A DNA stretch of 64,000 nt, taken from NCBI GenBank assembly GCA_977018835.1, contig OZ361256.1, positions 2,666,001 through 2,730,000 of the forward strand, written 5' to 3'. Position 1 is the stretch's first letter; the number at the start of each line of letters is the position of its first letter. Shown one piece after another: positions 3,569-27,191 of this stretch. Position numbers and translations under genes: made by a program. The notes beneath the pieces were generated by a model. It was given only the letters and a program-made list of their open reading frames with translations, searched no databases and was not told the origin of the DNA. This DNA comes from Minutocellus sp. GHC0000111. Its lineage: Eukaryota.

Positions 3569-4754
3569 TTAGCTCAAGATATTGATTTCCAACCCACTGG
3601 CCTCGTCCCAGCCATTGCCCTTTGCGAGCGCGGCCTCTTTTCTTTCCTCTTTCACTTTCTTCTCCGCTTCAGCTTTTTCTCTTTTCTGCCTTGCCTTTTC
3701 GCTCCTCTCGGCCATCCGTTGCATGTACTTGGCACGAGTGAGTGAAGTTATATCAAGGCCACACGGCAATGACTGATCTAATCGTCCACTTGGATTCCAG
3801 TTGCCCGACCCTGCCAATCTTGCCTGCTTGTGCTGCATGCCAATGAGCCAGTTGGCATGAACCAGCGCCACACTATTCCTATTTCTTGCTGAGAAGCATT
3901 GATTGCCTGACGGAAAGGCTTCAGAATCGCCAAGACGCCAAGTCACATTGTGTTTTCGGTCGTGAACAGCCGCATTGAATGCCGGCTGGTCATTTTCGTA
4001 CCACCCTGTCAGAATTTCGTCTCTCCATATTTCGAGGAGCTCGATAGTGGCCTCGTTTGGTTTCAGAAACATATTGCATGAACAAAGCGACCACGAGGCA
4101 CCGTCTCCAACAAAAAAACGCGTCTTCTTCGCTTCCTTCTGGATCCACTTCATTCCATACATTCTTTTTCCACACCATGTCAGCATCATTGTAGAGGACG
4201 TTGTAGCCCTTTTCGACAAAGGATTTTATGAAAGTTGGTGGAGATGCGGTCACTTCCTTAAAGCTACTCATTCCAAATGTTGCATAGGCATTGCTTTGGG
4301 ACGCATCATCGAGGCCGGGCAGAACAGGCGCAACATGACCAGGATATGCTGCCTCTAGCGTAATCTTGGTCGCGCTATCGAGCGGAATAAGAATAAAATT
4401 ATCAATGCCGAGCGTCAGCAAGGAGTTGGCCCAGTTGTCAGCGAGAGGAACCCCAGCACAGTTCACGGCTACAATTGCAATTCTCTTTCGTTCGTCAGCA
4501 ATCTTTCCCAACAGATCCGACGGAGGCCAGTCAGCAGCCGACACCTCATCATCAATGTAGTGAAAGAGATCCCTTGCTCGGATGGTCACGTCTGGGCTGT
4601 CATTTATGGGATCCTTGTTCAATGCTGCAAGTGCAGCAATTGTGAGACCAAGGAAGGTCGTCGACAGAATTCTCCGACGCCGTCGCTTTCGGCTGGACGG
4701 GTTAGGAGGCGTAGGCGGCAGCTCCTCGGCGATATTATCAAATGAACGCCACAT
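3569..4754 (-). pseudogene. Nucleotide-diphospho-sugar transferase (GT77-like, type II membrane), paralogue 1; +1 frameshift in a homopolymer
   Basis: N-terminal TM, YNDADMVW (DxD), DQPAFN and HANW are split over two ORFs. The frame changes at a 7-A run (4112-4118); 6 would give DAFFVGDG, matching DAFFVSDG in paralogue 2. May be an assembly error rather than a true pseudogene. Confidence 0.75.
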
Positions 4755-5175
4755 GCTTTCAATTGTGGTTAATTAATCGGTATGTGGGAGGCAACTGGCA
4801 ATCGTTTGTTGCCGCTTCCATTCGAATTGCCCTCCGCCGCTTTCAGATTGTGCGAGACCTGCAATCAAGCGCCGGCGGGGCCGGGGTCATTGCGAGAATT
4901 TTTTGACTAATTCGACCGATGGTCCGCACGATGATATCAGAAAGAAAGCGCGTTTGGGAAGCTGACCAATGTTGGTGCAGCAAGGGTCGCTGCTACATCT
5001 GTTCAGTATGGTGATCTAGAGATGCAAGTAACATGAAAAATTAAAAGTTATACATCCCTTAGCTCGGCGCTGCTGAAAAGTGTTCTTCAGATGTTTTGAT
5101 GGCAGGCATCAGAAACGGCAGAAACAGCTTCTTTATCGTCGTCGGTCGGCAAAATCATCAAATTCACCATGTCAA

Positions 5176-6619
5176 TCAAACAACTCGATTTGATGTCAAT
5201 TTTGCGCTCATTCCGACCTCAATATCGCCCCCACCATAAGCCGCAGTGGGACTTATTCTAGTATCAACATCCAAATGCGCTCCATCGGCAGGATTTCCCT
5301 TTAATCGGCTGGCAAAGCTCTGTGACTTGCGTGCGTGAATTTGTTGCAATCTTCTCGGCGTCATTGGGAATCCATCGTGACCATCTTCGCCGAGCATTTC
5401 TTCGATCTCTTCGTCCAGTGTCTCGATAATGTCTCCAAAGTCTGGCCGCTCTAGTATGGTTGCTGACCAACATCTCCGCATTAGATCCGTCCAGGGAATC
5501 GGCCAAGAATTGTCCGGCTTGGGCCGGTAGCCCTGCGCCACCACCAAGTCCGAATGCATCTTGCAGGTGTATCCCGAATACGGCGTGGCAAGGGCACATA
5601 TTTGCCAGAACAATATCCCAAACGAGTACGTGTCAACATTTTCCGTATAAGGATGGCCAATGGCAACCTCCGGTGCCATGTACCGCAGCGATCCAGTATT
5701 GCCCGTCAGATTGTAAGTACCATCCGCATTCCGATCATCCGGATGCAACCTCTTGGCCAGACCAAAGTCGAACAGCTTCAGTTCTCCCTCCTCATCAAAT
5801 CCTAGGTTGTCTGGTTTGAGATCCCGGTACACAATGGACTCCTGGTGCAAGTGATGCAGGGCCGATGCAATGTCCCGCGCAATGAAGAGCCGGTCCAACC
5901 ACAACCGTTGCAATATGTCACGGTTGGCACAGCAATGGCCAATGCAGGGGACCCACACGCCCATGGCATAACCCACGTCCCGTCTCCACTCTTGCAACCG
6001 CACGTCCAACGTGGTCGTTAGCAGATCCAAAATGATAAAGTACCGACTCTCCAACGGGTCGGAATTGGCCACGGCACGCATTGTAATGATGTTGGGATGT
6101 CGGAGCATGCCCAGAAAGCGCGCCTCGACGGCCAGATCGACGATGCCCTTAGTGTATTCATCTTCTGGCAAATCATTGCGCAGCGTTTTGATGACGTAGC
6201 GATGCAGCCCGGTGTCGGTGTTGAGGCAGGTGGAGGATAATCTAGCGCGGGCACGGGATTCGTTCAAATCGCCCAGCTGCGCATCGTACGTTGGGTCAAT
6301 GTCAATACGTTCAATGATGTTGACCACTGAAAAGCCACCCCTACCGATTTCCATTCCGACGCATAGTTCTGCAAACAAGGTGAATTTACAAGCGCAAGGG
6401 GGGTGGGATGGAGAAAGGTGAGATAGGAGTCGAGCACAACGCTTGGCTGGTGTTTGGTGTTTTTATTGTAGCGGACCAGATCAGACGCACGCAAAAAGAT
6501 AACCAAAGGAGCACAATAGAACACTTGGAACACATACCTGGATACGCCAGCTTTGGGACTGTTGCATCCGCCGACGATTCGCCGCCGCCGTTGGACTGGT
6601 TGCCGCCTGCGTCCATCAT
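5176..6619 (-). CDS. Ser/Thr (TKL-like) protein kinase, 2 exons (intron 6369-6537)
   Basis: IGRGGFSVV, YVIK, YRDLKPDN, DFG, GSLRYMAPE, DTYSFG, CW...RP. Donor CCAG|GTATGT and acceptor TTGCAG join MMDAGG...LAYP-E-LCVG in frame. Confidence 0.9.
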
Positions 6620-6885
6620 CTTGGGCAACTGCTCTCAGCAAGTGGTTTGGCGGGACGGGAACGGTTTGCAAAAATGAGGCACGGCCGGCTCGGCTCGGCA
6701 TTGGATTTGAGGCAGGATGAGGACTCCTCGCTTACATTTTTCGGGGAGTTGAGTTCGCCGGCCTCGATGACCCCCCGCCCCAGAGACCTAGCCCGCCCGC
6801 TACCAGCCCCAGGATGGGCCATACCAAAGGCATGCCCAGCTGTTCCTCAAACATACCATTATTGGCTGCAAAAGACCAAAGCAAC

Positions 6886-8058
6886 ATGACGAGCAATAGC
6901 TTAGAGACGATCGGCGACGGTCGCAACAGAAGGCGGCGGCAGGCAATATCGGCCTCGTCCCTCCTATTTGCTGGAGCTACAATTCTCACCTACAGCGGCT
7001 ACTATGACAGTGAACCATTCTTTGATCGTCGACAGCTCAACGTCTACGCAAACGCTGGGGTGAAATACAAGCGGTTAACAAAGGACCAAAGTCGAGCGCT
7101 GCAGTCCCGAAAGCGTCTCAAAGGTTATATCGACGAAAAGGTGGCACGAGCCGACTGGCCGCCGTCGTCGACTGTGGACAATGTCGCAGATGAGCACAAC
7201 CGCGTGGCATTGGTGGCCGTCAACTGCGCTGGGGTGCAATTCGCTGACAATTGGGCCAATTCACTTTTGAAACAGGGTGTTGACAACTTCGTAATGATTC
7301 CACTGGATAACTCGACATACACGACGTTGCTCGATGCCTACCCTGAAAACACGGTGCCTACTTTGCCTGGTCTTGAGAACTTTTTCGACCACCATTTGGA
7401 AAAGTACAACGGATTTGGGAGTGATCACTTCAAGGAGCTGACGGCATCTCGACCGACCTTTATTAGGTCATTTGTGAAGAAAGGATACAGTGTTCTTTAC
7501 AATGATGCCGATATGGTGTGGAGAGGCAATCTTTGGAAAGAGATTGACCCAGAGCCGGTGGCGGCGGTGGAAACAGAAAGCAACGATAAGGACGCCTTCT
7601 TCGTGTCTGATGGGACACCGCACTATATTTGCTCGTGCATGATATTCATGAAGCCAACAGCCACCAACCTCGAGGCACTGACCGTGTGGAGAGATGAAAT
7701 TCTGACCGGAAAATATACTCAAGACCAAGCTGCGTGGAATAAGATATTGAATGGTCCAGAGTTCTTATGGAAGGATAAGCTGAACTGGCAGCGAGGCGAT
7801 CCAGTGAAATTCCCCCCGGGCAGTGCCTACTTCAACCAAGAGACGATAAATCCGGAGCTCAGGGACAATGCCCTGCTTATCCACGCGAATTGGATGCACG
7901 GCGGATTCAACAAGAAATTCAAGCTTGAATTATCAGGAGATTGGAATCCAAGTGGAAGGTTGAATCCGTCGCTGAAATGCTCAACGTCGTTGGGTGGCGT
8001 GAACATGCCCCAGTGGATGCGGGAGGCATGGGAGAATAAAGAAGCAGCATTAAAGTAA
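6886..8058 (+). CDS. Nucleotide-diphospho-sugar transferase (GT77-like), paralogue 2, intact
   Basis: Basic stretch + TM signal anchor, AVNCAG..FADNW, YNDADMVW, QDQAAWN, FPPG, LIHANW. Likely start MTSNS at 6886 (the ORF is open from 6814). Confidence 0.85.
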   Translation: MTSNSLETIGDGRNRRRRQAISASSLLFAGATILTYSGYYDSEPFFDRRQLNVYANAGVKYKRLTKDQSRALQSRKRLKGYIDEKVARADWPPSSTVDNVADEHNRVALVAVNCAGVQFADNWANSLLKQGVDNFVMIPLDNSTYTTLLDAYPENTVPTLPGLENFFDHHLEKYNGFGSDHFKELTASRPTFIRSFVKKGYSVLYNDADMVWRGNLWKEIDPEPVAAVETESNDKDAFFVSDGTPHYICSCMIFMKPTATNLEALTVWRDEILTGKYTQDQAAWNKILNGPEFLWKDKLNWQRGDPVKFPPGSAYFNQETINPELRDNALLIHANWMHGGFNKKFKLELSGDWNPSGRLNPSLKCSTSLGGVNMPQWMREAWENKEAALK

Positions 8059-8102
8059 CTATGAGTCCGTAAGAAGACAACTGACAATAGATCTACCGGT
8101 AG

Positions 8103-8140
8103 ATCTCTCTCTCTCTCTCTCTCTGCATCTTTCTCTCTCT
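8103..8140. repeat. Interrupted (CT)n microsatellite
   Basis: atctctctctctctctctctctgcatctttctctctct. Confidence 0.8.
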
Positions 8141-8310
8141 GGGCTTCTCGTGACCCCATGATGATGAGTCGAACAAGTCCGTCGGGGCTATTGTGGCGGA
8201 TCGTTGCATGATCACCATTTTGAACACTCACTCTGCCTCAATTCTGCATTCTGCAGCCATTCCAAGGCAATGTTGCTAGCCACTGTCTGCTCAAATAGAC
8301 AACAATAAGC

Positions 8311-9509
8311 ATGGATCACGATGAGCGATGTACGAGCCGCACCGGCAGCAGCCGTCGCTTTCAGCAAGCCGCCACCTCTATCTTTCTCCTCTGCTTCGGC
8401 TCACTGATCCTCTCTTCTTTTGACCAAAGTAGCAGCCATGCCTCCACAACCACCTCGAGGACACGGAATCTACTATCGCATGTCGATGACGAGGTATCGG
8501 CAGCTGATTGGTCACCATCGTCAATAGTAGACAGAGTGGTTGACGAACGGAATAGAGTTGCCATTGCTGCCGTAAATTGTGCAGGTTTGAGATTTGCGGA
8601 CAACTGGGCGAACTCCTTGCTGACGCTGGGAATCGAGAACTTTATCATGATCCCTCTGGACAATTCCACCGAGGCCATACTGACTGAAATTTATCCGGAA
8701 CACACGGTCCCAATGCTTCCTGGTGCCAACGATGATCTCGAAAAGTATCATGCTTACTCCGACTTTGGTGGATTTGCCTTCAAGGAGTTAACATCGACAC
8801 GACCGTCTTTCGTCAAGGCATTTCTGAAGAAAGGATACACTGTTCTGTATAATGATGCCGACATGGTTTGGCGCGGGAACTTGTGGGACGAGGTTGATCC
8901 TTTCAGAGAAGAAAGTGGGGGGAATAACGACGCTGTCTTCATAGAAGACGGTAGCTTCTGGTCAATGTGTTCCTGCATGATTTTCATGCACCCGACGGAT
9001 AAAAACATTCGTTTTCTGGAGCTATGGAGAGATGAGATCCTTACCCGAAGGCACAACAACGACCAATATGCATTTAATGCGGTTTTACGAAACAATCCAC
9101 AAAGCGTCGATTGGCGTCGTGGAGACAAGATGAAGTTTCCATCGGGCTCATTATACTTTAAGATGCATCGTGAGAAGGATGCCAAGGCCAGGGAGAATGT
9201 GCTATTAGTTCAAACTGGATGCAAGGAGACGTGAAGAAGAGGATGGCATTAGTTGACAGTGATAATTGGCATCCCAGTGGAAAGATCGATCAGATTAGTT
9301 TGCGATTAGTACCGTGTGGGGAAGATTTCAGTGATCTCAAACAACAACAGAGGGCGCAGAGTATGGCCGAATACGAGTTGAAAGTGAAGACGAAACGAGA
9401 AAAGTTGGAGAGTGAAGAACGAGAGCTGAAGCAGAGAAAGGAAGCAGCGCTAAAGAATGGAAATGGCTGGGATGAGAAGAGCAATTTGGAGATAAATGTT
9501 TTGAGGTAA
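8311..9509 (+). pseudogene. Nucleotide-diphospho-sugar transferase (GT77-like), paralogue 3; apparent 4-bp deletion at the HANW motif
   Basis: YNDADMVW and NDQYAFN present. At ~9211 the sequence reads GTT CA AAC TGG ATG where the paralogues have V-H-A-N-W. The downstream frame (9219-9509) matches the paralogue 1 tail (KEAAL..GNGWDE.S.LEIN). Confidence 0.75.
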
Positions 9510-12433: not shown

Positions 12434-12575
12434 GGTGGCGTTATGACCCGGCTGGCGATGGCGGAAGACTGGATCTTCAAATTTTATCGCATTTTTGCAC
12501 CGGCCTCGCCTTCATTTTTTTTTCCCGGCTCGCTCGCCAACCTCATTTCTCAAACTCCAAAAAACCATCTCAACC
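12434..12575. promoter_or_regulatory. Putative bidirectional promoter (142 bp between divergent start codons)
   Basis: ATG at 12433 (-) and ATG at 12576 (+) face away from each other, separated by pyrimidine/A-rich 5' UTR-like sequence. Confidence 0.5.
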
Positions 12576-15500
12576 ATGGCCCGCTCCAGCAGGAGACGGG
12601 GCGCCGCCTCGACCGCTAACGGCGGTGGCGGCGCTGCCTATGCCCCTCCTAGTCGCAGGGGTAGATCTGCCCGATCAACCGCTACTACAGAAGAAGACGC
12701 AGAGGAGATTTTTGACTCGAACGATGCCGTGACAAAAAGTGACACATCAGGTACCGCTGCCGAAGCCGCTTCGAGCACAAAGCATGCAAGCGGGGACGAC
12801 GAGATCGAGACGATGAACGACGTCGAGATGGAAGATCGCAAGATGCCCGCCAAGTCGTCGGCGGATGACGACGATGGAGATGACAACGAGAGCGGCGGCA
12901 AGTCGTCCGATGAAGAATCCGAGTCTGATGATTCCTCTTCAGATGAAGATGATGGTGGTAATGGTGACAATGACAACGACGGACTGTCCGAATACGAACG
13001 CCTCCGCCTCGAACGCATCAAGCGCAACCAGGAGCGCCTCGCCGCCCTCGGCCTCCTCGACGTCAAGGAGCAGGTCCGTCAGCAGCAAAAGGCGGCCGCC
13101 GCCAAAAAGAAGAAGAAGTACAAAAAGAAGGACAAGGATGCTTCGGCAGCCCCGCAGCGCATCCTCCCCAAGCGGCAGGCCCGCGACCGCGCCTCCCTGA
13201 CGGCCGAGCAGCTCAACCCGTTCGACGTTCGCAAGATGCGCATCTCGTCCGATCCCACGTACTACGAGCGTCGCGGCAGCAGCGGCGGTGCGGCGTCCAT
13301 GGCCGACAGGTACCGGCGGACGTACCGATGCGGCGACTGCGAGGGGTGCAACTGGGCCGAGGACTGCGGACAGTGCGTCTGGTGCGTCGGCAGGATCAAC
13401 AATCCCACCCGACAACGCAGATGTCTGATGAAGATTTGTCGCAATCGGTTGGTCGATACCACCGTGGAGGAGATGGAGGGAGGTGCTGGTGATGATAATG
13501 TTGAAGCGGCAGCAGCAGCAGCAGCAGCAGTAGCGGCTGAAGAAAAAGAGGAAGAGGAGGAAGTAGCAGAGGGGGAATCCAAGACCAAGACGATCACCGT
13601 TACCGTGGGGGAGCTCGTTCGCAAGAATCGCATCAAGATGCCGCCCAATATGGGTGGACTAACATCCTCATCGTCATCCTCTGAGTCTGCTGCGGATACC
13701 ATTGCAGCTATGGATACAGCTGCTGGTGATGGTGACGGTGAAGAAAAGAAGGAAGAGGACGATGAAGAGGTAGGACGTGATTCTGGCAAGAAAATGCCAT
13801 CCGATGATGCCGCCTCGCAGAAGACTGATCCTACTAGTACTACCGGCGATGGCAAAACCAAGAAGGACGGCGAGCCCAAGAAGGACGACGACATTCCAAT
13901 TGTCTTCCCCGACAGCTGCTTCGCCTGCAAGGAGGATGGGATCCTCTTCTGCTGCGATACCTGCCCCCGGGGCTTCCATTCCGATTGCCACTTTCCAAAA
14001 ATCCGAGACTTGCCTTTAGGCGATTGGCAGTGCATCGAATGCGTCCGTGCCGCCAATGGTGGTGGAAATGGAGACGGTGGCGGGGATGTTGCGGCCGCTG
14101 AAAAGGCTCCCGAGATCCACGCCATCCTCCCCGCTGGATTTGATCTGGAGGAGCATTTGACCCGAAGCGGTAAGAAGCGTGGGGCGGCAAGTCCCAAACG
14201 AGGTAGGAAGAATAAGGCGCCCGAGGTTGGCATCGGTGGTATCAGTGGTGAATCGGCAGAACCCGGCAAGACTGTCAAGGTGACGATTCATGAGCCCCGG
14301 GCGCGATGCGTGGCCTGTACCGAGTACGGTGATATTGACGAGGAGGCTGCCATTCTGTGCCGAGCCTGCGACCAGTACTTTCACAAGGACTGCCAGACGC
14401 TGGACCACAAGCGAGGAGGTCGCTGGCGATGCGATGCTTGCCAGACTGCCAAGGCGAGCGTATGGTACGATCTATTGGCAGTTATCCCTGAGGAATGCGG
14501 CAAGAAGGATGAAGAGGAGGAGGAGAAAAACGTACCAGTAGCGGCTGGTACCAAGACCATAAGGGTTTCGGTGGTCGGACCAGAGACCAAATGCGTCGAA
14601 TGTTCTCAAGACGGCAGTGGTGGAGAAGATATGGTTTGGTGCCGCGCTTGCGATAATTCCTTCCACCTTGGATGTCACTCTCCTCCCCTCCAGACCATTC
14701 CCAAAGGGCGGTGGAAATGCGGCAAGTGCAAGATCGCCAACATTCCTCTTCCAAGACCTCCAAAGCCCAAGAGCAAAACAAAGGACGAGATTCTTGCCAG
14801 CCTGAAGCTGTTCAAGGGAGAGCACGACGACGATTGCTACATCTGCTACAATGGAGGTGGTAAGTATTGCTATTGTATCGTATTTATTTCCGTTTAGTAC
14901 TCCGTCTCAATTTCTTCAAGCGTCAATTGATCCTAACAACTCCAATGACAACTCAATGTTTTCTCCCATTGCCGCGCCTCGCAGATCTTGTGTGCTGTGA
15001 CTTCTGCTCCAAGGCGTATCACATGCAATGCCACATTCCTCCACTTCCATTTCTTCCTGACGAAAATTTACTGTGGAAATGTTGTGAATGCTCAGCTGTC
15101 GAAAGGACCAAAACGAGTCGCTGCGGCGAGTGCAAGGCGTGCCTTCGAAAGCCTTGTGGCAAATGTGCCCACTGTCTCAACGGTAGGACCAAGAAGGTAT
15201 GCATTAAGAAGGTCTGCCCTTACCCGAGGTTTGCGCCACCGGCGTCTTCAACCTCAATTCCAGGCCTTATCAATATTCGAGTTCCTCTCGAAGGAGATGA
15301 TGAGGATGAACAGGAATCGCCCATCAAGTCTGGTGGCAAGAAGCGTGGCCGCGAGCCCGCCAACGATAGCGCCGGCCCCGGGGGCAAGAAGAAAAAGAGG
15401 AAGGGCAGTTATGATTCCGATGACGACGAGGAAATGCAAGAAGAGTCAGAAGACGAGTGGGGTGGTGGGCCCATCACCTTCAAGCTCAAGCTGAATAGTC

Positions 15501-16783
15501 TCAAGTCTGCATTTATGGACCCAGAGAGCGTCAAGATACGCAAGATCATCAACTCCGCCCGTCGCAATGCCAAGGACTCCAAGGCATGCGATAAGGCGTG
15601 CGAGCATCTCCGCAAGCACTTGTCGTCCACCGACAACCTTGAGAAGATAATTCTTTGGCGTGGTATCGAGATGATATGCGATGCCATGCGGGAACATCCA
15701 GAGAAAACCATCGTTCAGGCCGAGGCATGCTTCACACTCGCTGAAATGATCTGGCTCGATCCTACCATTTCCACCAAGCTTGCTCACGAGGGTGCCATCG
15801 AACTCATTGCTTCCTGCATGAACCGCTTCACTACCAACTTGAAGGTACAGCAGATGGGATGCGGGGCATTCCGAGCTCTGACATACGACGAGGCCTCTGT
15901 ACCCTTTATCAAAGATGCCGATGGCCTCGCCGCCGTGCTCTCCTCCATGAAAGCTAATCCCAGCAAACTCCTCGTGCAGAGAGAGGCGTCTTACTTCTTG
16001 CAGAACATGCTCGTTCACGAAAACGAAACCGCAAACGCCATATCCAAATCTCGGGTTGTTCCTATCATTGCAGATGCAATGGCCAACGAGCAAGCGGACG
16101 CCGAATTCATCCAATCTGTTTGCGGTCTCATTGCCAACCTCGCTCTCAACAAACGAGCAAAGGCTGCGATTGGAAAGTCTGGCGCTATCCCCTGCATCAT
16201 TGATGCACTCAACCCTTCCGAAGATCTGGATGTGAAGCAAGCGGCATGTTCCGCACTCAAACATTTGGCCCTCGAAAGCCCCGACAATCAAAAGAGAATA
16301 TCCGAGGCCGGTGGTCTTGACGCTGTCTTTTCTGCGGTTAAATCCTTTTCCGACGATGAAGTTTTGCTCATTGCTGCCTTTGGGGCGCTCAAGGAATTGT
16401 GCATCAAGGACGAGGCTTCGAGCCGCAAGCTTGTCAGTAAAGGCATCGTAAAGATTCTGCTCAAGGCAATGCAAGATAACCAGGATCTTGCCATAATGCA
16501 ATCCGCGGCTTGTGGCCTCATCGGATATCTGCCGTATGGTAAGAGAGACAAGGAGGCCCCGAAACTTGCCAAGCTAATCATTGCTGCGATGAAAGCGCAT
16601 GGCGACGTCAGCTACGTTCAGATCGAGGGTTGCGATGCTTTGGTGGAACTCGCTCAAGTAAGTACTGTGATTCCCTTTTTGAAGGAAAAGTCTACGGCAA
16701 AGGTCCTTCAAAAAGCCAAGAAGGAGTACGAAGAATGCCAATCCGATGTTGAAGATATTTTGGCCGTGGCCAAGAAGAAGTAG
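12576..16783 (+). CDS. Chromatin reader with two CXXC-type zinc fingers, four PHD fingers and C-terminal ARM repeats; 2 exons (intron 14860-14984)
   Basis: G|GTAAGT...GCAG|AT joins CYICYNGG-D-LVCCDFCSKAYH (a PHD). Other PHDs: CFAC...CCDTCPRGFHSDC...WQCIEC, CVAC...CRACDQYFHKDC...WRCDAC, CVEC...CRACDNSFHLGC...WKCGKC. CXXC: CGDCEGC...DCGQCVWC...RRCLMKIC and CGECKAC...CGKCAHC...CIKKVC. ARM-like repeats (VQQMGCGAFRAL, VKQAACSALKHL); NLS-like basic tracts. Confidence 0.88.
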
Positions 16784-16858
16784 AAATTCCGAAACAAGGA
16801 AGGCCTGCACTTCAGGTAGTAACTATTGAAGTACCGGTAGATTGTTAAATTATTAAAT

Positions 16859-19800
16859 TTAAGAGACAAATATATCCACATCATCGTCCCATTTACCTCC
16901 CATTTGGTCGCGAACTTTTCGTCTTGCCTTCTCCATCCCAAAGGCAAATAAACGAACTCGTTTAACTGGCATCGCCGAGTTCGATTGGGTCTCCCCTTCG
17001 TCGTCTGGTATCGGTTGTCCCGGTCTCCATTCAACCCCAACCACTGTGCATCGGGATGTTTTGTTGTGGCGGCGAAGCTCATTGTTGAGCTCGTCGAGCC
17101 AACCGATCAAAGTTTCACTGCCATCGCTTGTCCACACTTCTAAGCGAACAGTCTCGCCAGAATTGACTCCTCTCCATATCCATCCTTCTTCCTTACACAA
17201 AAAGTGACATTTGCAGCGCCTCAGATTCTCGATGGAGAGTCTCCCGTGTGATCTTGTCTGTTGGCCAGGATGTTGCCGCCAGTAAAAAAGAATTTGGTCG
17301 ACTTTTCCACAAACGAGACCTTGGTCGAAGAATGATAACCAGAAATGCGTATCAACGGGCCACATCGCATCGTCTCGAAAGCAACCTTGGTGGCCTCCTG
17401 TAGCCTTCAAGACTGCTTCGAGTCGGAAAATTCCTGCCTGGTGCATAGATGGAATCTCCAAAAACCTTGCTTTTTGCATCAATTCCGGGGTTGTGAGGGA
17501 ATTCTGCCACGCGACATAGCGTTCCATTCCCTCTGCCTCCCAGCCAATGCACTTGGTTAACGAAGTTACACCGTCCCACTCTGGATGAATTCGCAGACTT
17601 CTCATCATTGATCGAAAGGCACTGCCTGGGCGCTCGTCGTCGCTCTCCATGTGTCCGATATAGCGTCCCTTGGATAAACGAAGGCACCGAGTCATGACTT
17701 GACCTTGCCCGGCATTGATATCATCCCATGGAACGATCACGCGTAGCCGAGCACTCTCATGAGTGGCAGCGGTTACTTCCTCGGCAGACAAAGGTGTTTC
17801 GATTATTTCCACCTCAGAATCAGGGACGACCTCGGAAGCCTGCCGAGATAATTCTGCATTCCTCTTTGGCATGGTAAGAGCTGGGTTGGTGGTCTTCTTC
17901 TTACTCGGGCATATCTTACTGCGACGATCAACGATTGCTCGAGCTTCTGATATTGACAAAATCGTAGAGGATCCCGATCTTGGATCAAATGCTTCAACCG
18001 AACCGCGATCCCCCAGTAAGAATGCAAGATCAACAAGGAAAGCCAGAGAACCGTCAGTGGAGCAGTCATCACCACAGAGAACTTCAGTGATCTCTCCTTC
18101 GTCCAGCTCTTGTTTTAGACAATCTCGCACTGCTAGTGGTACCCAGGGCATTGCATTATACACCGGAAGAATTACAGAAAGAGTAGGATTCAGGTCGCCC
18201 GAGGTAGGATTCGTTCTTGGGCAATGATTGGCAATGATCTCATTGAATTCCTTGGCAAGTTTATCATCGGCCAGCCGCGTGTGCCACTTGCCGCGATGAG
18301 GCCGCGCATGCGAAATACCAGCTAGCGCTTGTTCCAAGAGTTGCACAATCGCGTCATCATTGGAATCGATCCATACATTGAGCGCCGCTATGTGCTCCAC
18401 TGAAGACCCATCTTCTATTGAATTTGGCGCGAGATACGTCTTGCTAGATGATCGTAGAAATTTAAGCTCGACAAGTCGAGAGTCAAGGTGTTCCCCCAGG
18501 CACGACATTCGATCTACAATAATTTCAAGAGAGGAAATAGGAAACGACCACTGTGCAGTATATTTTCTTTCGCCATCGCAGCTTTTGCGAGAATTTTCCC
18601 ACAGAGAATGCATGAGAGGGCCGTCCGGATACCAGGAACGGGCGCTGTAGGCAGAACGGTTGATTGAAGAGGATACGTCTGAATCATCAACACCTTCTAA
18701 AACAACTGCGACAGCGTCATTGCTACCATCGGCATTTCCATTGCTATTGGGCAGCATCCAATGAATCCAACAATGGCCAGTGGATAGTGCAAGTGCACGG
18801 ATCTTTTCACAAACATCATCGTCGGACATATCGAATTTGACTTCCTTCTTTCGTACCTTCGGAGTCGGAATGAGTTGAAGTGTGGCGTCCAGTGTGGTAC
18901 CGGCCAAACCGACTCCGCATCTGGCAGCCTTCAATAGACTAGAGTTTTGAAGGACCATGCTACCACCACTTGGTGTATTGATCTCAGTCGAATCTTCAAC
19001 CAAGGCGACATGCTCTCCCGACCGTAGTACCATTCTCATCGAGACAATTTCATCGCTCAAGGTCCCATACTTGCTGCTCGAGCCATGACTACCGGTTGCT
19101 AGTGCGCCTCCTACTGTTTGGTCAAGCAAAATTGGCAACGATGATAGAGTGAAGCCGGATCGTTTTAGTGCAGTGCATAATTCCGATAGCTGCATTCCCG
19201 CCTCAACGCGTACGGTCGCTGCTTGGCCGTCTTGATCAATCTGAAAGTCCAACACTCGATCCATAAGGGTAGCGTCGATGAACATCGACGATTCACTCTG
19301 AAGACATTTTGATGAATTTAAGCCCCCAACGGGTTGAGAGGTAATGCCAGAGCAACATGCCGCTTTGGTTGCAACCACCACATCATTTCGGCTTATAAAC
19401 AACGAGCAATGATTGTAGGTTGATAGTGCGCGGTATTTGTCGTATTGCTGAATGTCGATGAGGAATGGATAGTCATGTCTTCTGGGCAAAAGCGTTGAAC
19501 TGACACAGATTTTCCAGATTGGCATTCCAGCATGGAATCAATCACTGCAACATCTCGAATTGCCTCCTCGGGGCAGCATTTCGGCGTAACTTGCTTCCTC
19601 CTGGGCGAACCAAGCACGACACCAGCAAAGATGTCCAAGGACTCTTCCAAGCTTTCCTTTACACCTCCATGAATCCAACTATCGCCGCTTATCCGTTCCA
19701 ACAATTGCACATTTGAATTTTCATGTCGCTCGATTGTCGATGTAGCAACATTCCACACTAATCGGCGTTCGTCGCCAAAAAATACGGTAATGACTGCCTT

Positions 19801-20928
19801 CTCGTCTTCCCGATTGATATTGCGCTTGCACTCCATTGATATTTCTCCAGATATGTAATTACCGTGGTTAGCTTTGCCCACCAATGAGATGTTGTCATTT
19901 GCTTCATTTTGATCGTATCTGCAATCGCATACGGAATCGATCTCGCCAAAGAGCCGACGCAAAACGCGAATAACATGGACCCCAACATCTCTGGTAGCAC
20001 CGCCGTCATACAATGCAGATGCGTTCGCTCTCCACCCTTCTGTGTCAAGTCCCTGGCACAAAGCGAGTGAGTATGCCTTCGGCCGAGATTTTTGGCGAAT
20101 AATTTCAGCATTCAAGTGCCTTTTCATTGCGCCAAGTGATGCCTTATGGGCCCAATTTTCTGATACCAACCACCGTTCGCCGGCACGCAGGTACTGACAG
20201 GCTTCCCATAGCGAATGAGATTGCCGCGAATTGGGCGATACTGGCTTCTCGGATATGACGCACTTTCCAGCTCGAAGGCACATGCCAACTGCTTCGACCA
20301 TCTTTGGAATTGGTATACACAGCACGCACACATCGGCAAGCCATCCCGATCGGTCTGACGATGGACCTTCCGCATCATTATTTGCATCCAACAGGCTTTG
20401 TTCATACGTCAGATATTCTTCGAGAGTATCAAATCTAGCAACCTTTTCATCGCCAGAAGTGTCGACCTGAAGATTGATTCCGTTTCGGCGCAAAGTGGCA
20501 AGCGCTCTGGTAGCCCCATCTGGCTTCCCGCAAAGAACTGTTATCTTGACGTCAAAGCGTTCTCCGTGGTTTGCTTTCTTTGGTTTGATCTTTCTATTGA
20601 TGATCTTGGCCAGTGCCGGAAGATGTGCACGGTTGCAAAACCATCCGCCTCATCCGACAACAGCCAAACGAATCGCGTTCTCGCATGGGGCTGGAACGAT
20701 GGCTTCAGACGCGTGTGCTTTGCTGGAATGCTGATTTCCCTCGCATTGCAGAGGCTTGGGGGCAGAAGGAGACGGAGCCTGACGGCGAAGGTCAGCAACC
20801 GATCGGCCACTCGCCTTTATCTGCAACAGCCTCCTCTCTTTCTTTCTCCTTTTCGCTTCTTCTTTGGAAGCTTTGCGGGCCTTCCGTTCTGCCTTTATTC
20901 GCTCTCTTCTCTCTTGCTCGGCCTCCAT
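16859..20928 (-). pseudogene. Disrupted three-domain fusion: Gfo/Idh/MocA NAD(P) oxidoreductase + FAD aldonolactone-oxidase-like domain + GT2 glycosyltransferase
   Basis: IRLAVVG*GGWFCNRAHLPAL (in-frame TGA 20650-20652), ISEKP, ENW, DVGVH; frameshift at ~19396; VRVEAG, QTVGGALATGSHGSS, VELKF, RPHRGK; LSVILPVYNA, DDCSTDGS, MESDD, ERYVAWQNSL, YWRQHPGQ. Confidence 0.75.
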
Positions 20929-21178
20929 CGCATCGAGTTGTGTTGCTCAAGATTTTCCTGGACTCATAACCTGATATCAACCGACGACCGAGAACAGAGA
21001 CGGCCACAAGCAAGTCAAGGAGATTGTAAGATCTTATTTGATTGATACATCTAGGATAGATAAGTAGGTCTAAGAGAAGACTATTTGGGTATCCCTCACT
21101 TCACTTGGCTTCTCTTGTCTGTCTGTCAGTCAAACTACTCAGTACATGTAGATCTACCAATTGTAGGGATGCCGGTCG

Positions 21179-21588
21179 GACGCATCACAGTTTCATGTGA
21201 GACAAAAACGGACAAAATAAGGCCTTTCTTTTCATTGTCATAACTACTAGAAAACACGGGATTTTTTGGTCCCGCTCTAAATTATTCTGATTTCAGAAGG
21301 AAGAGCGACGCTGTGCCTTTCCCTAACGACGGGGGGGCTGTTTTGCGGTGTGGTAACTTTTGATGCAAGAAGAATTTTCAGATACTGCCAGCGGCCATTC
21401 GGCGGGCGAATGTCCTCTTGCCATTGACATGCTCACTTGATGAAAATATTGACGACAGCGGCAGAGAGCGGCAGTTCATCATGGTGAAGATGGCAAAATG
21501 AAGTACTTTCTAGGTTACGTCAGCGATAAAGGGCCTTATTTTGTCCGTTTCACTACGGTGAGCGTCTCACCTGAAACTGTGATGCGTC
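21179..21588. mobile_element. Non-autonomous DNA transposon (MITE-like, 410 bp) with long imperfect TIRs and a 4-bp TSD (GTCG)
   Basis: Left GACGCATCACAGTTTCATGTGAGAC vs right GTCTCACCTGAAACTGTGATGCGTC (24/25 inverted match). Inner second block AAACGGACAAAATAAGGCC / GGCCTTATTTTGTCCGTTT. GTCG directly flanks both ends (21175-21178, 21589-21592). Confidence 0.8.
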
Positions 21589-21706
21589 GTCGATGAACTC
21601 GAGATCGAATCACCGAGAAAACATCATCATCGCCATAGTGCATTTTCATCAACTATCGGTACTACATGTAGATCTAGAGTAGCTACGATCCTATTACCAG
21701 ATCTAT

Positions 21707-22746
21707 CTAAGAAAAAGGCACAAAGTAATCCAAATCAACTCCCTCCGATTCACCGTAATATCTACCACCATCGACTTCCTTGAAGTGCTTCTCCGAAAAT
21801 CCCCATGGATATGTGGTTGGGCTTGTTTCCGACACATGTGCATTGATGTCTCCATTATTGACCATTCTCCACTGCCCGTTATTTATCCGCTCCAACTCAT
21901 ACACTCCACAGGCTGCAAACTTGAGCTCCCTCATGCTGCACTTGAGCAATGCCGCAATTAGGGCCACGGATGCTGCATGGCTGAAGCAAACGATCGTCTC
22001 CCCCTGATGATGCTCCTCAATCTTCTCGGCGAATTTTCTCATTCGTTTCGTATAGTGTCCGGCAAATGCCTCACATGGATGTCCCGTTTTGGGACAAGTA
22101 AAGCCAGGAGTCGATTCGACCTGATGCAAACTCTGATACGTCGGGTCCACATGAGGAAAGTACGCAAACCGTTCTTCGGGGGAGGGCAGCACGTTCCCAG
22201 GAGTAGCATGGGCCTCACTCAGACCATATTCAATAGAAAGCAGCACGCCGAATGCATCGGAAGTCGGACAGGCAGTCTGAATAACACGCAGGTAGGGAGA
22301 CACCATGACTTTCGCGATGGGATTGGGGGCGGTGCCACTGCCGTTGACTTTTCCGATAGTTTTCACGAGGTAGTCGGCGGTCTCCTTGGCTTGACGATGA
22401 CCAAGTGCACTTAGAGGAGGGTCAGTGGTCAGAGCTCCAAACTTCTTCGCCGCTGGTGCCCAGTGATCATTGGCATAGTCGAAGCGGTCCTGGGGGGAGG
22501 AAGGGGGTTTGATTTGTAGAAGCAATGTGAGAATGAGGAAGCGGAAGAGGCGTGTGGGCACTACGATCGCACGAGTGACCACGAAAAAGACATGCTGGCG
22601 GGCCCGCCAAAATTTATGCTTTGTGTATGTGTTGTGTCCGGCGCTGCACTCACTCCATGGCGAATCAGGAATACTCTCGAAACCACATCGTCGCATGCCG
22701 AGGTGGTTGGGGACGCGTCGGTAGCTGTCAGGTCGTTGGGTGCCAT
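21707..22746 (-). CDS. Histidine phosphatase (phosphoglycerate-mutase-like) family protein; 2 exons (intron 22490-22653)
   Basis: GGA|GTGAGT...CCCAG|GAC splicing gives VFLIRHG-DRFD. Also DPPLSALGHRQA, SPYLRVIQTA, GLSE, CFSHA. Confidence 0.88.
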
Positions 22747-23297: not shown

Positions 23298-26200
23298 ATG
23301 GGAGAAGGCGGCGGAGGCGGTAACAACGCCGCCATTGCCGCAGCCAATCAAGGTTATCGGGTCAAGGGATACATGTACCACTCATCAAGCGCTGACGAAG
23401 GTGATCCCAGCCCGGTTGTTCTGTATGCAACGATTGGCTATCTCATCGTAGCTGTTTTGGCAATATGGCCCATCGGTAGGTGAAAGGCTGCGTACACGCA
23501 TTTCTTTGTTTATTTGGTACATTGTTCAAATTGATTGAAGAGAATTACGACTTTTTGGACCTCGTTCCTTTTTTTGCGAGAACTTGAGAGTTGCATGCAT
23601 TTTTGTGTGACGATATGCATAATGGTGCTCACCGACAATTACAACCATCCTGGCCGCTCCAACTCCACAGTCCAAATAACACGCCGATTCAAAAAGCTTC
23701 GGAAGGCTCAACGAAAGAGGGCTCTTGAGCATGCAGCATCAATGTCGACCACAGCCTTTCGTCGCACCCCGTCACACATCGCAAGCGGCTATCCAGATGA
23801 CCACTCTCTCGCAGTCAGTAGAATCGCCCCAGTCAACGGCGGAGCCAGTGTTAGAAGTAGTAGAAGTTCCAACGTTGAGGGCGATGATGAGAGTGTTGCG
23901 ACGGCCAAGAAAGACAATACCAACTATTGCCCTCCTCAAGATGCCAACTGCGATAGCAGTAGCATCGCAACTCCCCAGCGTGGCAACAAGGGGAATGCCA
24001 GCTCGAGCCGCTCTCTTCCTTTTACTAAAGCTCCCCTCACCGGCGTTGCTGGTAATGAAAGAGGAAGGGCCAACACCTACGACTGGGCCGAAATGGAAAT
24101 ACCTCCTTCTTCCTCTGGCGTTTCTATCAAAACCACCCGTACAATGGCCGAGGCAGATACTCGAATGAGTAATGTATTCATTGAAATTCCAACGACAATG
24201 AAGGGCACTGCTTGTGCCAGTTCGTTCAAACAACCACCCCCAACAACTGTGGAGGGGGGCATTGGAGATGATGGGCAACCTTTCGAGCCTACAGTATCTT
24301 CGATAGCCAGTAGCAAGGGCACGCAACAAACTGAATCCACTGTCACCTCGACGCCTTCCTTGAATAGCTATGTATGTGGCAAGACGGCAGCAAAATCGCT
24401 AGCAACCGCTTCTACCCAATTGACTGGCTCTACAGATAGCAAAGATAGCCTTCAAGATACAAGCAAGGGAACTCCTGCTGCACGCCAGACCAGAGATGCT
24501 CGCTCTCGTGCCACAGTTTCTACTCGAAGGACAATACAGAGTGCAGCAACGACCAGTACAGTCAAATCCTTCCACTCTCTTGCGGGTAGAGGAGGCCGGA
24601 AGGCTCTCCGTGCCGCCAAGCTTGCCAACATGAGGCCTGACATGGCTATGCCTAGTAGCATGCCCGAGGCGCCATCATCCTCTTCGGTGTATAAGGCTGC
24701 TGGCGATGACATGACCCTCAAGACCGTCGATGATGGCGCTACAGTGCGCACTTCGTTCACTCGGCGATCCACCAAATCCGCCGTCACTACGGCCACAGTC
24801 AGATCTTTCTACTCGCTCTCGGCCCGCAGTGGCCGCAAGGCCGTTACGGCAGCGAGGCTCGCCTCTAAAGCTGATATCACATCTCCCCTTGACTTACCTC
24901 CGAATCCTAATAGAGGCGATAGAAGTACCAAGAAGGTCACAAGCGACGACGCCACTGTCAGCATGTTCGACGAATACTTCTCCATGGAGGGCGGTGGCGA
25001 ATACGACGAGGAGGAAGGCAGCCCACGAGGATGCCTCATCGTCTGCTCTGCTGACAATTCAGATTGGCATGACGATAAGACTATTGATACTGAGGACATC
25101 CTTGATGAAGGAGCTTGGGACAACTACGAGTGGCATGAGCTGCCTAGCCATGTTCGAGATGCAGCCTGCCTTCTCGGTTGTACTTCGAGCCAGGCTTGGA
25201 ATTGCGGCGGCGTGGCATACAACAATGATAAGTCCTGGAACGAGTTGAGCTCGGCCCAGATTAGAGCCGCCCGGGTCCTTGGCTTCAATCAGCGTCTGTG
25301 GGATCACGAAGTGGTCGAAAGAACAAAGATGCAACAAGTCATTCGAGGCCTCGATACGTATCGCGAAGTGGTGCAGTGTAATGAAGAGACTAGGATGATT
25401 ACGGGCATTGCGCTTCCCGCTACTTGGGAGACGATGCTTGAGCTAATCACAGAAGCCATTCAGATTGCTCTTATCTCGAAGTACCTTGGACAAGACGCAC
25501 TCGACGCCTACGCCGTAGTAGAAGGTTGCCTGTTTGTTGCCTATAATATTGGATCAGGGCTGACTGATGCCGAAGAGATTCTTGTTTGCCAAGCTCTCGG
25601 TATGGAGGACACCTTCCTTGCAGGACAGTACACCCTCCTTTCTATTGCTACATACATTATTTCAGCCGCCCCGGTTTATCTATGCCTCATTTTCTTTATC
25701 GAAGCGATCATTATTGGTCTTGGTCTCAACGCTGAGGTGGCCACCATGGCAATGCTCTACATCCCGGTCCTTGCCCTCTCCCATTTTATCAGTGACTCTT
25801 TTGCTGACACGCTTTCGTCGCTGCTGCGATGTGATGGGAAGTATCTTGAAATGGCGATCATTGATAGTATCTTCAACGTTTCGCACATAATGATGGTTGC
25901 AGCTGGGGTTGTTTTCTTTGACGTTGGCCTCGTTGGAATGGCTTGGATCGAGGTTGTCAATGCCGTGATTTACGGCGTCTTCATCTTTGCCTATTCCTCC
26001 GCCAAGGGGTGGTTGCAGCCATTTTGGGGAGGCTTGACTGATGTTCGAGTGCTGCTCTCATTAAAGAGCATCAAAAACATGATGGTTTTGGCTTTCCCAC
26101 TTGCATTGAATGAGTTTATTTCATCAGGTGAATGGTCAATCCTATCTCTGTTCGCTGGATATATCGGCGGCATAGATCTAAATGCATGGACCATCCTCGG

Positions 26201-27191
26201 TTCCCTCTGGGGTTTGTTCTCTTATGCCCCCGAGGGTATCAACAGTGCCGTCGTCATGCGACTAGCATTTCATCTCGGGCGCGGTGATCCACGAAGCGCC
26301 AAAGTGACCGGCTACAAGTGTCTGGCGTACTGTGGAGGCCTTTCCTTGGTAGTTTCGGCCATGTTCTACATTTGGCATAAGGAGATCATCGCTCTGTTTA
26401 CGAATTCACCACTGATCGCTGCCTCTCTCGGAAAAACCGTCGTTTTGATTGCCGTTGGAAATGTGATTGTTGGCTTGGGTGGTACAGCAAGTGTCATTCT
26501 TACAGCGCAGGGCAGGCCTGGTATCGCCACTTGGGTCAATGGCATTTCTGTTTGGGCCATTAGCATTCCTTTGAGTGCTTTGTTTACATTTGGACTGAAA
26601 TACAATATCACCGGGCTCGTCTGTTCGATGCTCACTGCCTACACTACGTCGTCGCTCATTATGTTGGCCTTCGTCTTCACAACCAATTGGGCAAAGGCCT
26701 CGATGGAAGTTATTGCTGCCGAAGCCGAGGAAGAAGGGTCTTTCGGCGGCGATGATGCATCAACGATTTCACAACTAAGTTTGGCTTTGAAAGATGACCC
26801 CGGAATACGACCGTCATGTGATGCAACAAATGATGAAAAAGATTCATCGACCGTTGTAGCACTTTATACTACAACAAGTGATTGTGCGCCCATCGGCTCT
26901 CGAGCTTTCGCAATCCCATCATCGAGCGCCTGTACTTCTTTATCTCGAAAACCAGATTGTTCTTCGTTGCCTTGCTGTTCCTATGTTACAGATGAAATCT
27001 CTATGTCTGGAATGGAGACTATAATGAGTCCAGGTGGACTTTTTACTATCGTTGAAAACAACGAAGAAAGATTTCGGCAGTGGGTCGGAACGCAGTCATC
27101 GGTCAAGAGCGTAAGTAGTAAAGGCAAAAAAGTCCGAGTTATTCGCGAAAAGAAAGGAATGAATAAGAAGTTCTCGGCTACCGATGTGTAG
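23298..27191 (+). CDS. MATE-family transporter with an N-terminal TM and long S/T-rich disordered extension, copy 1; 2 exons (intron 23476-23670)
   Basis: G|GTAGGT...CACAG|TC joins WPI-V-QITRR. The C-terminal half has ~12 hydrophobic helices with MATE motifs (LVCQALG, RLAFHLGRGDPRSAK, ILTAQGRP, WAISIPLS, TTNW). Confidence 0.85.

Follow-up and report, generated by a model that had tools for sequence, protein, structure and literature searches.

A Gfo/Idh/MocA–flavoenzyme–glycosyltransferase fusion gene, broken in a Minutocellus allele, with a flavin domain of an undescribed clade

The window analysed here, a 64,000-nucleotide stretch of contig OZ361256.1 of Minutocellus sp. GHC0000111, carries a pseudogene allele of a gene that joins a Gfo/Idh/MocA oxidoreductase, an FAD-dependent oxidoreductase, and a family 2 glycosyltransferase (GT2) in one polypeptide (Table 1). 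The flavin domain belongs to a clade related to the vitamin C and alditol oxidases, in which the Arg of the catalytic Arg-Lys pair is replaced by Lys. We tentatively propose that the intact protein may couple a glycosyltransferase to a sugar epimerase that works by oxidation followed by reduction.

Table 1 Features of the fusion gene in the window
Feature	Position	Strand	Basis or location
Triple-fusion gene, pseudogene allele	16859..20928	minus	colinear over full length with the single-ORF homologues P0001 and P0003
N-terminal Lys/Arg-rich segment	20794..20928	minus	14 Lys+Arg in 25 residues
Gfo/Idh/MocA NAD(P)-dependent oxidoreductase domain	19500..20670	minus	Pfam; motifs GxGGWF, EKP, ENW, DxGxH kept
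Premature TGA at Cys of Rossmann glycine loop	20650..20652	minus	Cys in relatives; TGA unchanged in X2, X4, X5, X7, X17
2-base insertion, frameshift at flavin-domain start, polymorphic	19393..19398	minus	in X2, X7, X9, X17; absent from X4, X5, X10
VAO/PCMH-type FAD oxidoreductase, undescribed clade	18230..19460	minus	Pfam, AF2 model, site table, profile alignments, tree
Asn replacing flavinylated His	19318	minus	flavin domain
Pro at oxygen gate	19135	minus	flavin domain
His	19087	minus	flavin domain, active-site residue list
Gln	18553	minus	flavin domain
Glu-x-Lys	18469-18461	minus	flavin domain
Asn	18379	minus	flavin domain
His-x-Gly-Lys	18298-18287	minus	flavin domain
Soluble GT2, GT-A fold with inserted segment and C-terminal alpha/beta domain	16859..18196	minus	PF00535 E 5e-9; AF2 pLDDT 94.5
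Acidic SDD motif	~17644-17636	minus	GT2 domain

Gene layout, relatives, and two lesions of the window allele

The colinear order of Gfo/Idh/MocA, flavin, and GT2 domains, proposed in the initial annotation, is borne out by Pfam and the reading frames. The gene starts with an ATG at 20928 on the minus strand and would comprise about 1355 codons if its lesions were read through; no intron was found across 16859..20928. The Gfo frame (20928-19393) contains an in-frame TGA at codon 93 (20652-20650), and the flavin and GT2 domains lie, as that annotation stated, in one uninterrupted ORF (19537-16859, 892 residues from stop to stop). Among the Pfam families it had named, PF01565 (E 2e-16) and PF00535 (E 5e-9) match the window protein, PF01408 falls under the cut-off (E 0.0027), and PF04030 (ALO) finds no match; PF04030 is present in 10 of 19 proteins scanned, all of them relatives of the flavin domain. 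PF22725 matches just over the cut-off (E 3.8e-6).

Intact triples encoded by a single ORF were found in P0001 (1363 aa), P0003 (1390 aa), P0311, and Triparma strigata P0009. Since the fusion is one gene in these relatives, the first of the refutations set out in the initial annotation does not apply. The window gene is 83/89/79/87% identical to P0001 by domain, and 10 of the 15 listed members of the P0003 cluster are 1377-1390 aa long. Out to Triparma, at 24-38% identity, the domain order and the N-terminal helix are the same, and the catalytic motifs of all three domains are intact. The Gfo-flavin pair occurs without GT2 in Incisomonas P0014, Chrysophaeum P0209, Polykrikos P0222, Prorocentrum P0237, the partial Cymbomonas P0234, and bacteria. 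The cassette was found in 1 of 401 genomes of the class of G001, namely G001 itself, and in 2 of 151 genomes of its family. Six proteins came out of a profile search aimed at long Gfo fusions, none of them a new triple, and among the at least 80 loci listed by a generic-pattern scan of genome contigs, one was a family member and the others served as controls. The phage collection gave one 24% match, which by identity is not a Gfo-flavin family member. Most members of both the Gfo-flavin and the GT2 family stand alone, and the coupling of the two is therefore not obligatory. By title among the matches listed, the fusion was absent from the published work found.

Two lesions break the window copy. 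The TGA replaces a Cys found in P0001, P0003, and P0009; of the 16 relatives whose motif was read, 15 have it. The 2-base insertion segregates: X4, X5, and X10 are shorter by two bases at 19394/19396, whereas the TGA remains in X4 and X5. X2 (depth 222), which may be the window's own source, agrees with the window at both lesions. The contigs X7, X9, and X17 from RNA libraries match the window letter for letter and show no splicing across the frameshift; for X7 and X17 the same holds at the TGA. The RNA-library contigs derive from two other studies, may contain DNA, and show neither strand nor level. Since the lesions are present in DNA and in unspliced RNA-library contigs without splice joints, both assembly error and introns were ruled out as their cause. 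GT..AG candidates of 40-200 nt spanning the lesions had canonical ends in 0 of 27 and 0 of 10 cases. Both breaks are genuine alleles, and the window allele is a pseudogene that cannot encode the three-domain protein. The P0003 cluster contains a different frameshifted null allele (P0283+P0271). The gene thus looks dispensable, being dead in the lineage of the window and frameshifted otherwise in a related cluster. Work on the function of the fusion calls for an intact homologue, since the window copy is a pseudogene whose second lesion is still segregating.

The position of the TGA exactly at a conserved Cys raises the question of selenocysteine, with the alleles lacking the insertion (X4, X5) being functional; X4 has the TGA in an otherwise open frame. 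We regard this as very improbable. No Rfam match up to E 5 was obtained in 15500-21800, and the single weak SECIS-like pattern, 1.07 kb downstream, is at chance level, as 14 of 84 background tiles have one likewise. In X10 the short 3' gap contains many indels, and the Cys sits in a nucleotide-binding loop. Moreover, X4 differs from the window by only three letters and one gap, so its open frame reflects recent ancestry and not selection.

A flavin domain with an altered catalytic pair

The AF2 model of the flavin domain (pLDDT 86) has VIA Z scores of 35.0 to GalDH, 34.2 to AldO, and 32.4 to DprE1. Together with the PF01565 match, the Z of 35.0 over residues 1-396 places it in the VAO/PCMH fold shared by GalDH/GLDH, GULO, and ALO; the best structural match is 8qnr (rmsd 2.5, 340 aligned), and the cap domain is predicted to fold like that of GalDH and AldO. 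Glu386 (33 of 33 family members), Lys456 (32 of the 32 with a letter there), and TGSHG of the aldonolactone oxidoreductases are kept, and position 413 retains the Asn of GULO. The Arg388-Lys456 pair is reported to be conserved in aldonolactone oxidoreductases (PMC11099136). At the Arg388 site, mapped via bacterial E-x-R homologues and AldO, Lys is found in all 33 family members that cover it, whereas 79 of 82 bacterial ALO/AldO-like controls have Arg. The change is conservative, and a literature search found no paper on an R388K result.

Other positions also set the family apart. A conserved Glu of the controls (79/82) is Gln in the family (30/33). Position 113 is Ala in GalDH and Gly in GULO and ALO, whereas Pro occupies it in 30 of 34 family members and 4 of 82 controls, with Gly in none of the 34; plant GULLO5 also has Pro at the gate (PMC11505616). 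The flavinylating His is found in 6 of 30 family members, against 78 of 82 controls, and the window reads GGLNS in place of the covalent-FAD GxGHS, as had been noticed earlier. The window thus shows Asn and Pro in place of the His and Gly113 of the GULO/ALO oxidase branch, and its FAD is probably non-covalent, as in GalDH. The alditol oxidase AldO gives full-length profile matches (2vfr, E 1.6e-43; 8ot8, E 3.3e-45; Z 33-34) and has the C-terminal His..Lys in common with the flavin domain. It differs in having E-x-R for E-x-K, the Glu of QSEY for Gln, and a cap His for Asn, as well as the flavinylating His that most of the family lacks. In a quick tree with SH-aLRT support only, containing 16 of the 82 controls and no true GULO, GalDH, or ALO rows, the family is set apart as a clade of its own (SH-aLRT 98) from the ALO-like bacterial sequences included; the tree label GT2triple is loose, as no GT is seen in P0196 and no Gfo in P0008. 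The flavin domain also differs from the aldonolactone oxidoreductases in its fusion to Gfo and GT domains.

The active site also resembles that of DprE1. In the profile alignment, P85, H101, Q279, K309, and K367 of the window fall on P116, H132, Q336, K367, and K418 of DprE1 (numbering of 21gq_A), and the DprE1 site is lined by H132, Q336, K367, and K418 (PMC6128881 Table 2). Overall likeness is lower: identity to DprE1 is 17%, the hhalign score is 170 as against 440 for the ALO/GalDH-like enzymes, and the DprE1 motifs DIHGKNHH and YxAKD read TGSHGSS and HRGK. The domain scores 44.8 bits against a cut-off of 500 for NF053785 and lies on a separate tree branch. Judged from aligned residues, the match would support a DprE1-like way of working, not membership of the DprE1 family.

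The C-terminal HWxK site reads HRGK in the window and P0001, HLGK in P0003, and HYGK in P0009, whereas bacterial members have HWGK. In trypanosome GALO, changing this Trp to Gly abolished flavin binding, so the algal domains lacking it may be weak or dead. Their C-terminal FAD elements are shortened as well. These losses would suit an incidental fusion of neighbouring genes in a compact genome, with algal redox domains that are in decay or have no catalytic activity, as would the null alleles of the window and the P0003 cluster, the long tree branch of the window (0.17 vs 0.064 for P0001), and the few synonymous differences (10/27 in X10 and 13/32 in X6 vs 28% expected, from partial tables of listed differences). 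We nevertheless consider it decidedly unlikely, since domain order, N-terminal helix, and the catalytic motifs of three domains persist as far as Triparma, and a second, well-supported GT fusion exists in the bacterial locus L088.

The Gfo and GT2 domains and the basic N-terminus

The Gfo domain has the Rossmann GxGxx loop, which holds the TGA in the window, the EKP and D-x-x-x-H motifs, and the C-terminal alpha/beta domain of the Gfo/Idh/MocA family. It shares the loop and both motifs with 1zh8, WlbA-type 3q2i/3q2k, 1,5-anhydrofructose reductase, GFOR, and the sugar 3-ketoreductase 3rbv. None of the characterised enzymes is close (NCBIfam equivalogs 14-60 bits vs cut-offs of 330-650), and for a bacterial member the closest solved structure is the uncharacterised 1zh8 (E 1.3e-29). 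Keto-sugar reductases and sugar 3-dehydrogenases are among the matches, and the domain is about equally close to the aldose dehydrogenases GFOR, aldose-aldose oxidoreductase, and DHDH. Many members have a C-S-R-S/T loop, a usual feature of Gfo enzymes that bind NADP(H).

Both redox domains may instead be oxidative, or shuttle a cofactor internally, and yield a keto-sugar or aldonic-acid glycoside without an epimer. The AldO-like full-length match fits this reading, and the Gfo relatives include levoglucosan dehydrogenase, UDP-GlcNAc 3-dehydrogenase, and DgpA, which are glycoside and UDP-sugar 3-dehydrogenases. Two oxidases in one chain, however, need two substrates or sites, and the C-S-R-S/T loop would favour reduction in vivo; we consider this reading unlikely.

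In the GT2 domain, D186 and D187 of the acidic metal-binding motif are invariant in 78 aligned rows, and a family alignment joins the domain with single-domain algal and bacterial relatives. The fold matches generic GT2 folds only (best SpsA, Z 21.0, rmsd 3.4, 226 aligned), and PDB and fold searches found no characterised close relative. An insertion of about 90 residues is present relative to the bacterial relatives, and no hydrophobic segment exceeds KD 1.92, in keeping with a soluble enzyme. Among 401 Pseudomonadota genomes, 13 bacterial relatives were found, single-copy and with unrelated neighbours; no polysaccharide gene was seen within 1.5 kb of these loci, and no queuosine gene beside them (ORFs of at least 150 aa, up to four a side, E 1e-15).

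The basic N-terminus is shared with P0001, P0003, and Triparma P0009 (37% identity, E 1e-6); in P0311 the basic helix was judged by eye, and the N-terminal HMM did not report this protein. P0241 and P0234 have 11 Lys+Arg there, and seven other Gfo-flavin proteins scored have 4-8. From its composition, the segment is a possible nuclear-localisation or nucleic-acid-binding helix.

QTGAL/B3GNTL1, the queuosine-tRNA galactosyltransferase, has a soluble two-domain GT2 build that the GT2 of the fusion may share. The GT2 studied here differs in being joined to two oxidoreductases and in having the inserted residues. With a QTGAL-like GT2, the fusion could act in the nucleus, building a sugar onto a base of tRNA or DNA and remodelling it afterwards, and the solubility, the conserved basic N-terminus, and the solitary bacterial relatives fit this. 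The Atlas sequence matches, however, are generic GT2 clusters, many of phage origin, queuosine genes are absent beside the 13 loci, and the redox pair has a cell-surface glycan context in bacteria, which makes this reading quite unlikely. B3GNTL1 appears as the gene name for QTGAL in PMC11705514.

Bacterial context and a possible sugar-editing function

In the four bacterial loci read, two of which (L002 and L110) are related and have a common insertion site, the Gfo-flavoenzyme cassette is near surface-polysaccharide genes. The L088 ORF joins a GT43 domain (PF03360, E 2.8e-25) at its N-terminus to Gfo and FAD/ALO domains, and its neighbours are GT4, DUF4422, and UDP-galactopyranose mutase genes. 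L001 adjoins an exopolysaccharide cluster and L002 a GT2 gene; around L110 no GT lies within 4 kb, and an FkbM methyltransferase and a polysaccharide flippase are 4-7 kb away. A GT is within 4 kb in 3 of 4 family loci vs 4 of 78 control loci, where the control queries came from the family's own loci.

The initial annotation read the domain order as a pathway from sugar via lactone and ascorbate analogue to glycoside. In this scheme the Gfo domain would turn an aldose into an aldonolactone with NADP+, the flavin domain would convert the lactone into an ascorbate-type enediol, and the GT2 domain would glycosylate the enediol. Part of this stands: the order fits, the flavin domain is in the GalDH/AldO/ALO neighbourhood with GalDH as the best structural and N-terminal sequence match, Glu386, Lys456, and Asn413 are kept, and aldose dehydrogenases are among the Gfo matches. 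According to PMC4396506, fungi make ascorbate glycosides, and algae with secondary plastids already have GLDH for making ascorbate. The pathway itself is not supported, and we consider it unlikely, given the invariant Lys at the Arg388 site, the separate clade, a TIGR01678 score of 65.6 bits vs a cut-off of 396.8, and the polysaccharide context, as well as the broken window copy. Since the GT of L088 is at the N-terminus, the domain order has no pathway meaning.

We favour the epimerase reading, at a strength that we would put as quite possible but short of probable. With a nucleotide-sugar as donor, the GT2 domain would glycosylate an acceptor in the cytosol or nucleus. The flavin domain, as DprE1 does, would oxidise a secondary hydroxyl of the ring-closed sugar, on the donor or the product glycoside, to a ketone, and the Gfo domain, in the part of DprE2, would use NAD(P)H to reduce the ketone again on the opposite face. 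One stereocentre would thereby be inverted and the unstable keto-sugar kept within a single polypeptide. This reading is consistent with the intact triples, the Gfo-flavin pair, the second GT fusion, the polysaccharide context, the active-site signature, and the clade; against it count the greater likeness to ALO/GalDH than to DprE1 and the retained Glu386, Lys456, and Asn413. The proposed logic is that of the decaprenylphosphoryl-ribose 2'-epimerase DprE1/DprE2, in which flavin and NAD(P)H oxidoreductases serve glycan synthesis. DprE2 is an SDR, whereas the partner here is Gfo/Idh/MocA; the fusion is a single soluble polypeptide with a GT, and no lipid-carrier link was seen.

A wider form of the proposal seems quite improbable to us: the Gfo and Lys/Lys flavoenzyme cassette would be a portable, soluble DprE1/DprE2-like epimerase that bacteria and protists have attached to GT43, GT2, and perhaps GT8. 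The GT8-like call, in P0238, comes from a weak glycogenin match (E 0.16) with no Pfam match. In Parmales and their relatives its partner would be a QTGAL-like GT2, with a basic N-terminus, and these algae may thus write a sugar on a tRNA or DNA base and then edit its stereochemistry.

Within the vitamin C/alditol oxidase flavoenzymes, the flavin domain represents an uncharacterised branch with an altered catalytic pair, and algal genes of this kind could wrongly be annotated as GULO. The flavoenzyme and its Gfo partner occur from soil bacteria to marine protists and have been fused to a glycosyltransferase more than once. If the epimerase reading is true, the fusion would achieve DprE1/DprE2 chemistry in a second way, as one soluble chain, and would give algae a route to rare-sugar glycosides.

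Three-domain relatives of the fusion gene

Intact relatives bear out the initial annotation of a three-domain gene: P0001, P0003, P0311 and Triparma strigata P0009 each carry the Gfo/Idh/MocA (Gfo), FAD-binding (flavin) and GT2 domains in the same order within a single reading frame, and the flavin and GT2 domains of the window do share one uninterrupted ORF. In P0001 (1363 aa), Cys takes the place of the TGA and the frame continues across the frameshift site, and P0003 (1390 aa), P0311 (1429 aa) and P0009 (1220 aa) are triples with a basic leader and the same domain order. The nearest named triple-fusion relative of the window's copy is that of T. strigata, and the window's flavin domain lies inside that clade, which points to a stramenopile host, most likely a diatom. 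The 1912-aa gene model P0139 contains an HPF1 domain in addition to the triple, which may be a merged neighbour, and we infer that P0270 and P0035, which have a 23,060-base longest contig in common, look like an intron-split triple. The Gfo-flavin pair occurs in Incisomonas, Chrysophaeum, Polykrikos, Prorocentrum, Cymbomonas and bacteria without GT2, whose absence is not always certain since some records are partial. In the green alga Cymbomonas tetramitiformis, a Gfo-flavoenzyme model with a basic leader (P0234) and a GT2 protein (P0019), each partial, may be a single gene. No publication on the Gfo-flavoenzyme-GT2 fusion was found among the literature matches listed.

Features of the fusion gene and its surroundings in the window
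Feature	Position	Strand	Remark
PF03407 ORFs	3990-9234		three nucleotide-diphospho-sugar transferase ORFs inside 5 kb, 8-13 kb from fusion
Convergent neighbour	12447-16783	plus	CXXC, several PHD fingers, ARM repeats; stop 76 bases from fusion's stop
Second frame	19537-16859	minus	FAD-binding domain and GT2, without stop
First frame	20928-19393	minus	leader and Gfo; broken by TGA at 20652-20650
Fusion gene start	20928	minus	ATG; frame opens with Lys/Arg-rich leader, then Gfo/Idh/MocA domain
Repeated element	21153-21300		upstream of fusion gene; about tenfold jump in contig depth, many loose ends
Motif around agatctacatgta	about 21150 and 21670 (regions 21150-21300, 21640-21720)		upstream of fusion gene
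MatE transporter ORFs	23535-27191, 34340-36352		two ORFs
DUF229 ORFs	36411-41660		two in tandem, same frame; single stop between at 38571-38573

Active-site residues of the flavin domain

The flavin-domain model (pLDDT 86) matched GalDH (Z 35.0), AldO (34.2) and DprE1 (32.4). In a quick tree, the flavin family forms one clade (SH-aLRT 98) apart from DprE1 and the ALO/AldO-like proteins. Aldonolactone oxidoreductases have Arg388-Lys456 as their conserved catalytic pair, and Gly113 and a flavinylated His mark the oxidases among them, as described by Boverio et al. (PMC11099136). We compared 34 family rows with 82 control rows of bacterial ALO/AldO-like proteins, dropping rows under 330 aa. At the Arg388 site, Lys is found in 33/33 family rows and Arg in 79/82 controls. 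Gln occupies, in 30/33 family rows, a site with Glu in 79/82 controls; position 113 is Pro in 30/34 versus 4/82, and position 413 is Asn in 32/33 versus 0/82. The flavinylation site holds His in only 6/30 family rows, compared with 78/82 controls. P0014, a Gfo-flavoenzyme fusion from Incisomonas, retains this His. Incisomonas is reported to have GULO as well as GLDH (PMC12614181), and P0014 could be the protein behind that GULO annotation.

The initial annotation proposed a one-gene route from sugar via aldonolactone to an ascorbate-analogue glycoside. We consider this route unlikely, given the uniform replacement of the catalytic Arg388. Secondary-plastid algae are reported to have GLDH and to make ascorbate by way of galacturonate (Wheeler et al., PMC4396506; Smirnoff, PMC11066809), so the gene is not needed for ascorbate supply, although an ascorbate analogue could still be made.

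In a profile alignment, the family's Pro, His, Gln, Lys and Lys align with Pro116, His132, Gln336, Lys367 and Lys418 of DprE1, whose site is lined by the last four (PMC6128881, Table 2). This likeness should not be over-read, because the overall profile score is far higher to ALO-like proteins than to DprE1 (440 versus 170), the family keeps Glu386 where DprE1 has Val365, plant GULLO5 has Pro in its gate as well (PMC11505616), and HWxK has lost its Trp in the algal triples.

Partner domains and a possible reaction

The Rossmann loop and the EKP, ENW and DxGxH motifs are all conserved in the Gfo domain. Its nearest solved relative, 1zh8, is uncharacterised, and since the next matches mix sugar 3-dehydrogenases, keto-sugar reductases and aldose dehydrogenases, sequence does not fix the reaction direction. 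That a keto-sugar or an aldonic product is the end point seems doubtful to us.

The GT2 domain model (pLDDT 94.5) has only generic GT2 structural matches. It aligns over its full length with a bacterial two-domain family, and this build may resemble QTGAL/B3GNTL1; nucleic-acid glycosylation, partly compatible with the oxidise-then-reduce reading below, is quite unlikely. Inspection of three intact triples revealed no membrane span. GT2 occurs by itself in many algae and bacteria; its bacterial relatives are single-copy in 13/401 Pseudomonadota genomes, with unrelated neighbours. We regard an incidental fusion of the domains as improbable.

The Gfo-flavin cassette is rare in the bacterial genomes searched. 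At locus L088 (9260-12247, plus strand), a 995-aa GT43-Gfo-flavoenzyme triple, with GT43 at the front (E 2.8e-25), adjoins GT4, DUF4422 and UDP-galactopyranose mutase genes; to our knowledge, GT43 is unusual in a bacterium. Locus L002 has a GT2 gene tail to tail with the cassette and a PEP-CTERM gene upstream. In its kin L110, no glycosyltransferase was found within 4 kb, but genes for an FkbM methyltransferase and for a flippase lie at a distance of 4-7 kb. In Rhizobium, the flavin gene alone flanks an exopolysaccharide cluster. A glycosyltransferase lay within 4 kb at 3/4 family loci versus 4/78 control loci, a comparison biased toward the family by queries drawn from its loci. The C-terminal domain of the protist Gfo-flavoenzyme P0238 (also P0264/P0267) weakly matches glycogenin (GT8; E 0.16), a lead to a GT8-like domain.

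Because of the DprE1-type residues, the permanent NAD(P)-dependent sugar oxidoreductase partner and the repeated glycosyltransferase ties, the pair may most simply edit a ring-closed sugar by oxidising and then reducing it, a reading from sequence that we favour tentatively. The flavin oxidoreductase would oxidise the sugar, and the Gfo partner would then reduce it to the edited form.

Lesions in the window's copy

Contigs of run X2 (organism A, depth 222) agree with the window at the TGA and at the insertion. The two bases at 19394/19396 are absent from contigs of three further runs: X4, a different sample of organism A; X5, from a sponge metagenome; and X10, from organism B. Without these bases the two frames run on as one. 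The X4 contig differs from the window by only three letters and one gap and keeps the TGA, and the X5 contig spanning the TGA shows no other letter. RNA-library contigs from two studies are window-identical without joints, over the insertion in X7, X9 and X17 and over the TGA in X7 and X17; no canonical intron fits at either site. The TGA is thus found in 5/5 near-identical runs with a listed contig across the site (X2, X4, X5, X7, X17), and the insertion segregates as a second lesion (four runs with, three without). Recoding of the TGA as selenocysteine is very improbable, as searches for it gave no support.

Genes near the fusion, which encode PHD/ARM, kinase, casein kinase II beta and polyubiquitin proteins, mark the host as eukaryotic. 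The upstream repeated element is possibly a small non-autonomous transposon.

The window's flavin-domain branch (0.17) is longer than that of P0001 (0.064) in the quick tree, and a related cluster has a different frameshifted allele (P0283 and P0271). We take the gene to be dispensable and the window's copy to be a pseudogene, and regard the fusion as a real, undescribed enzyme architecture, present here as a dead allele.
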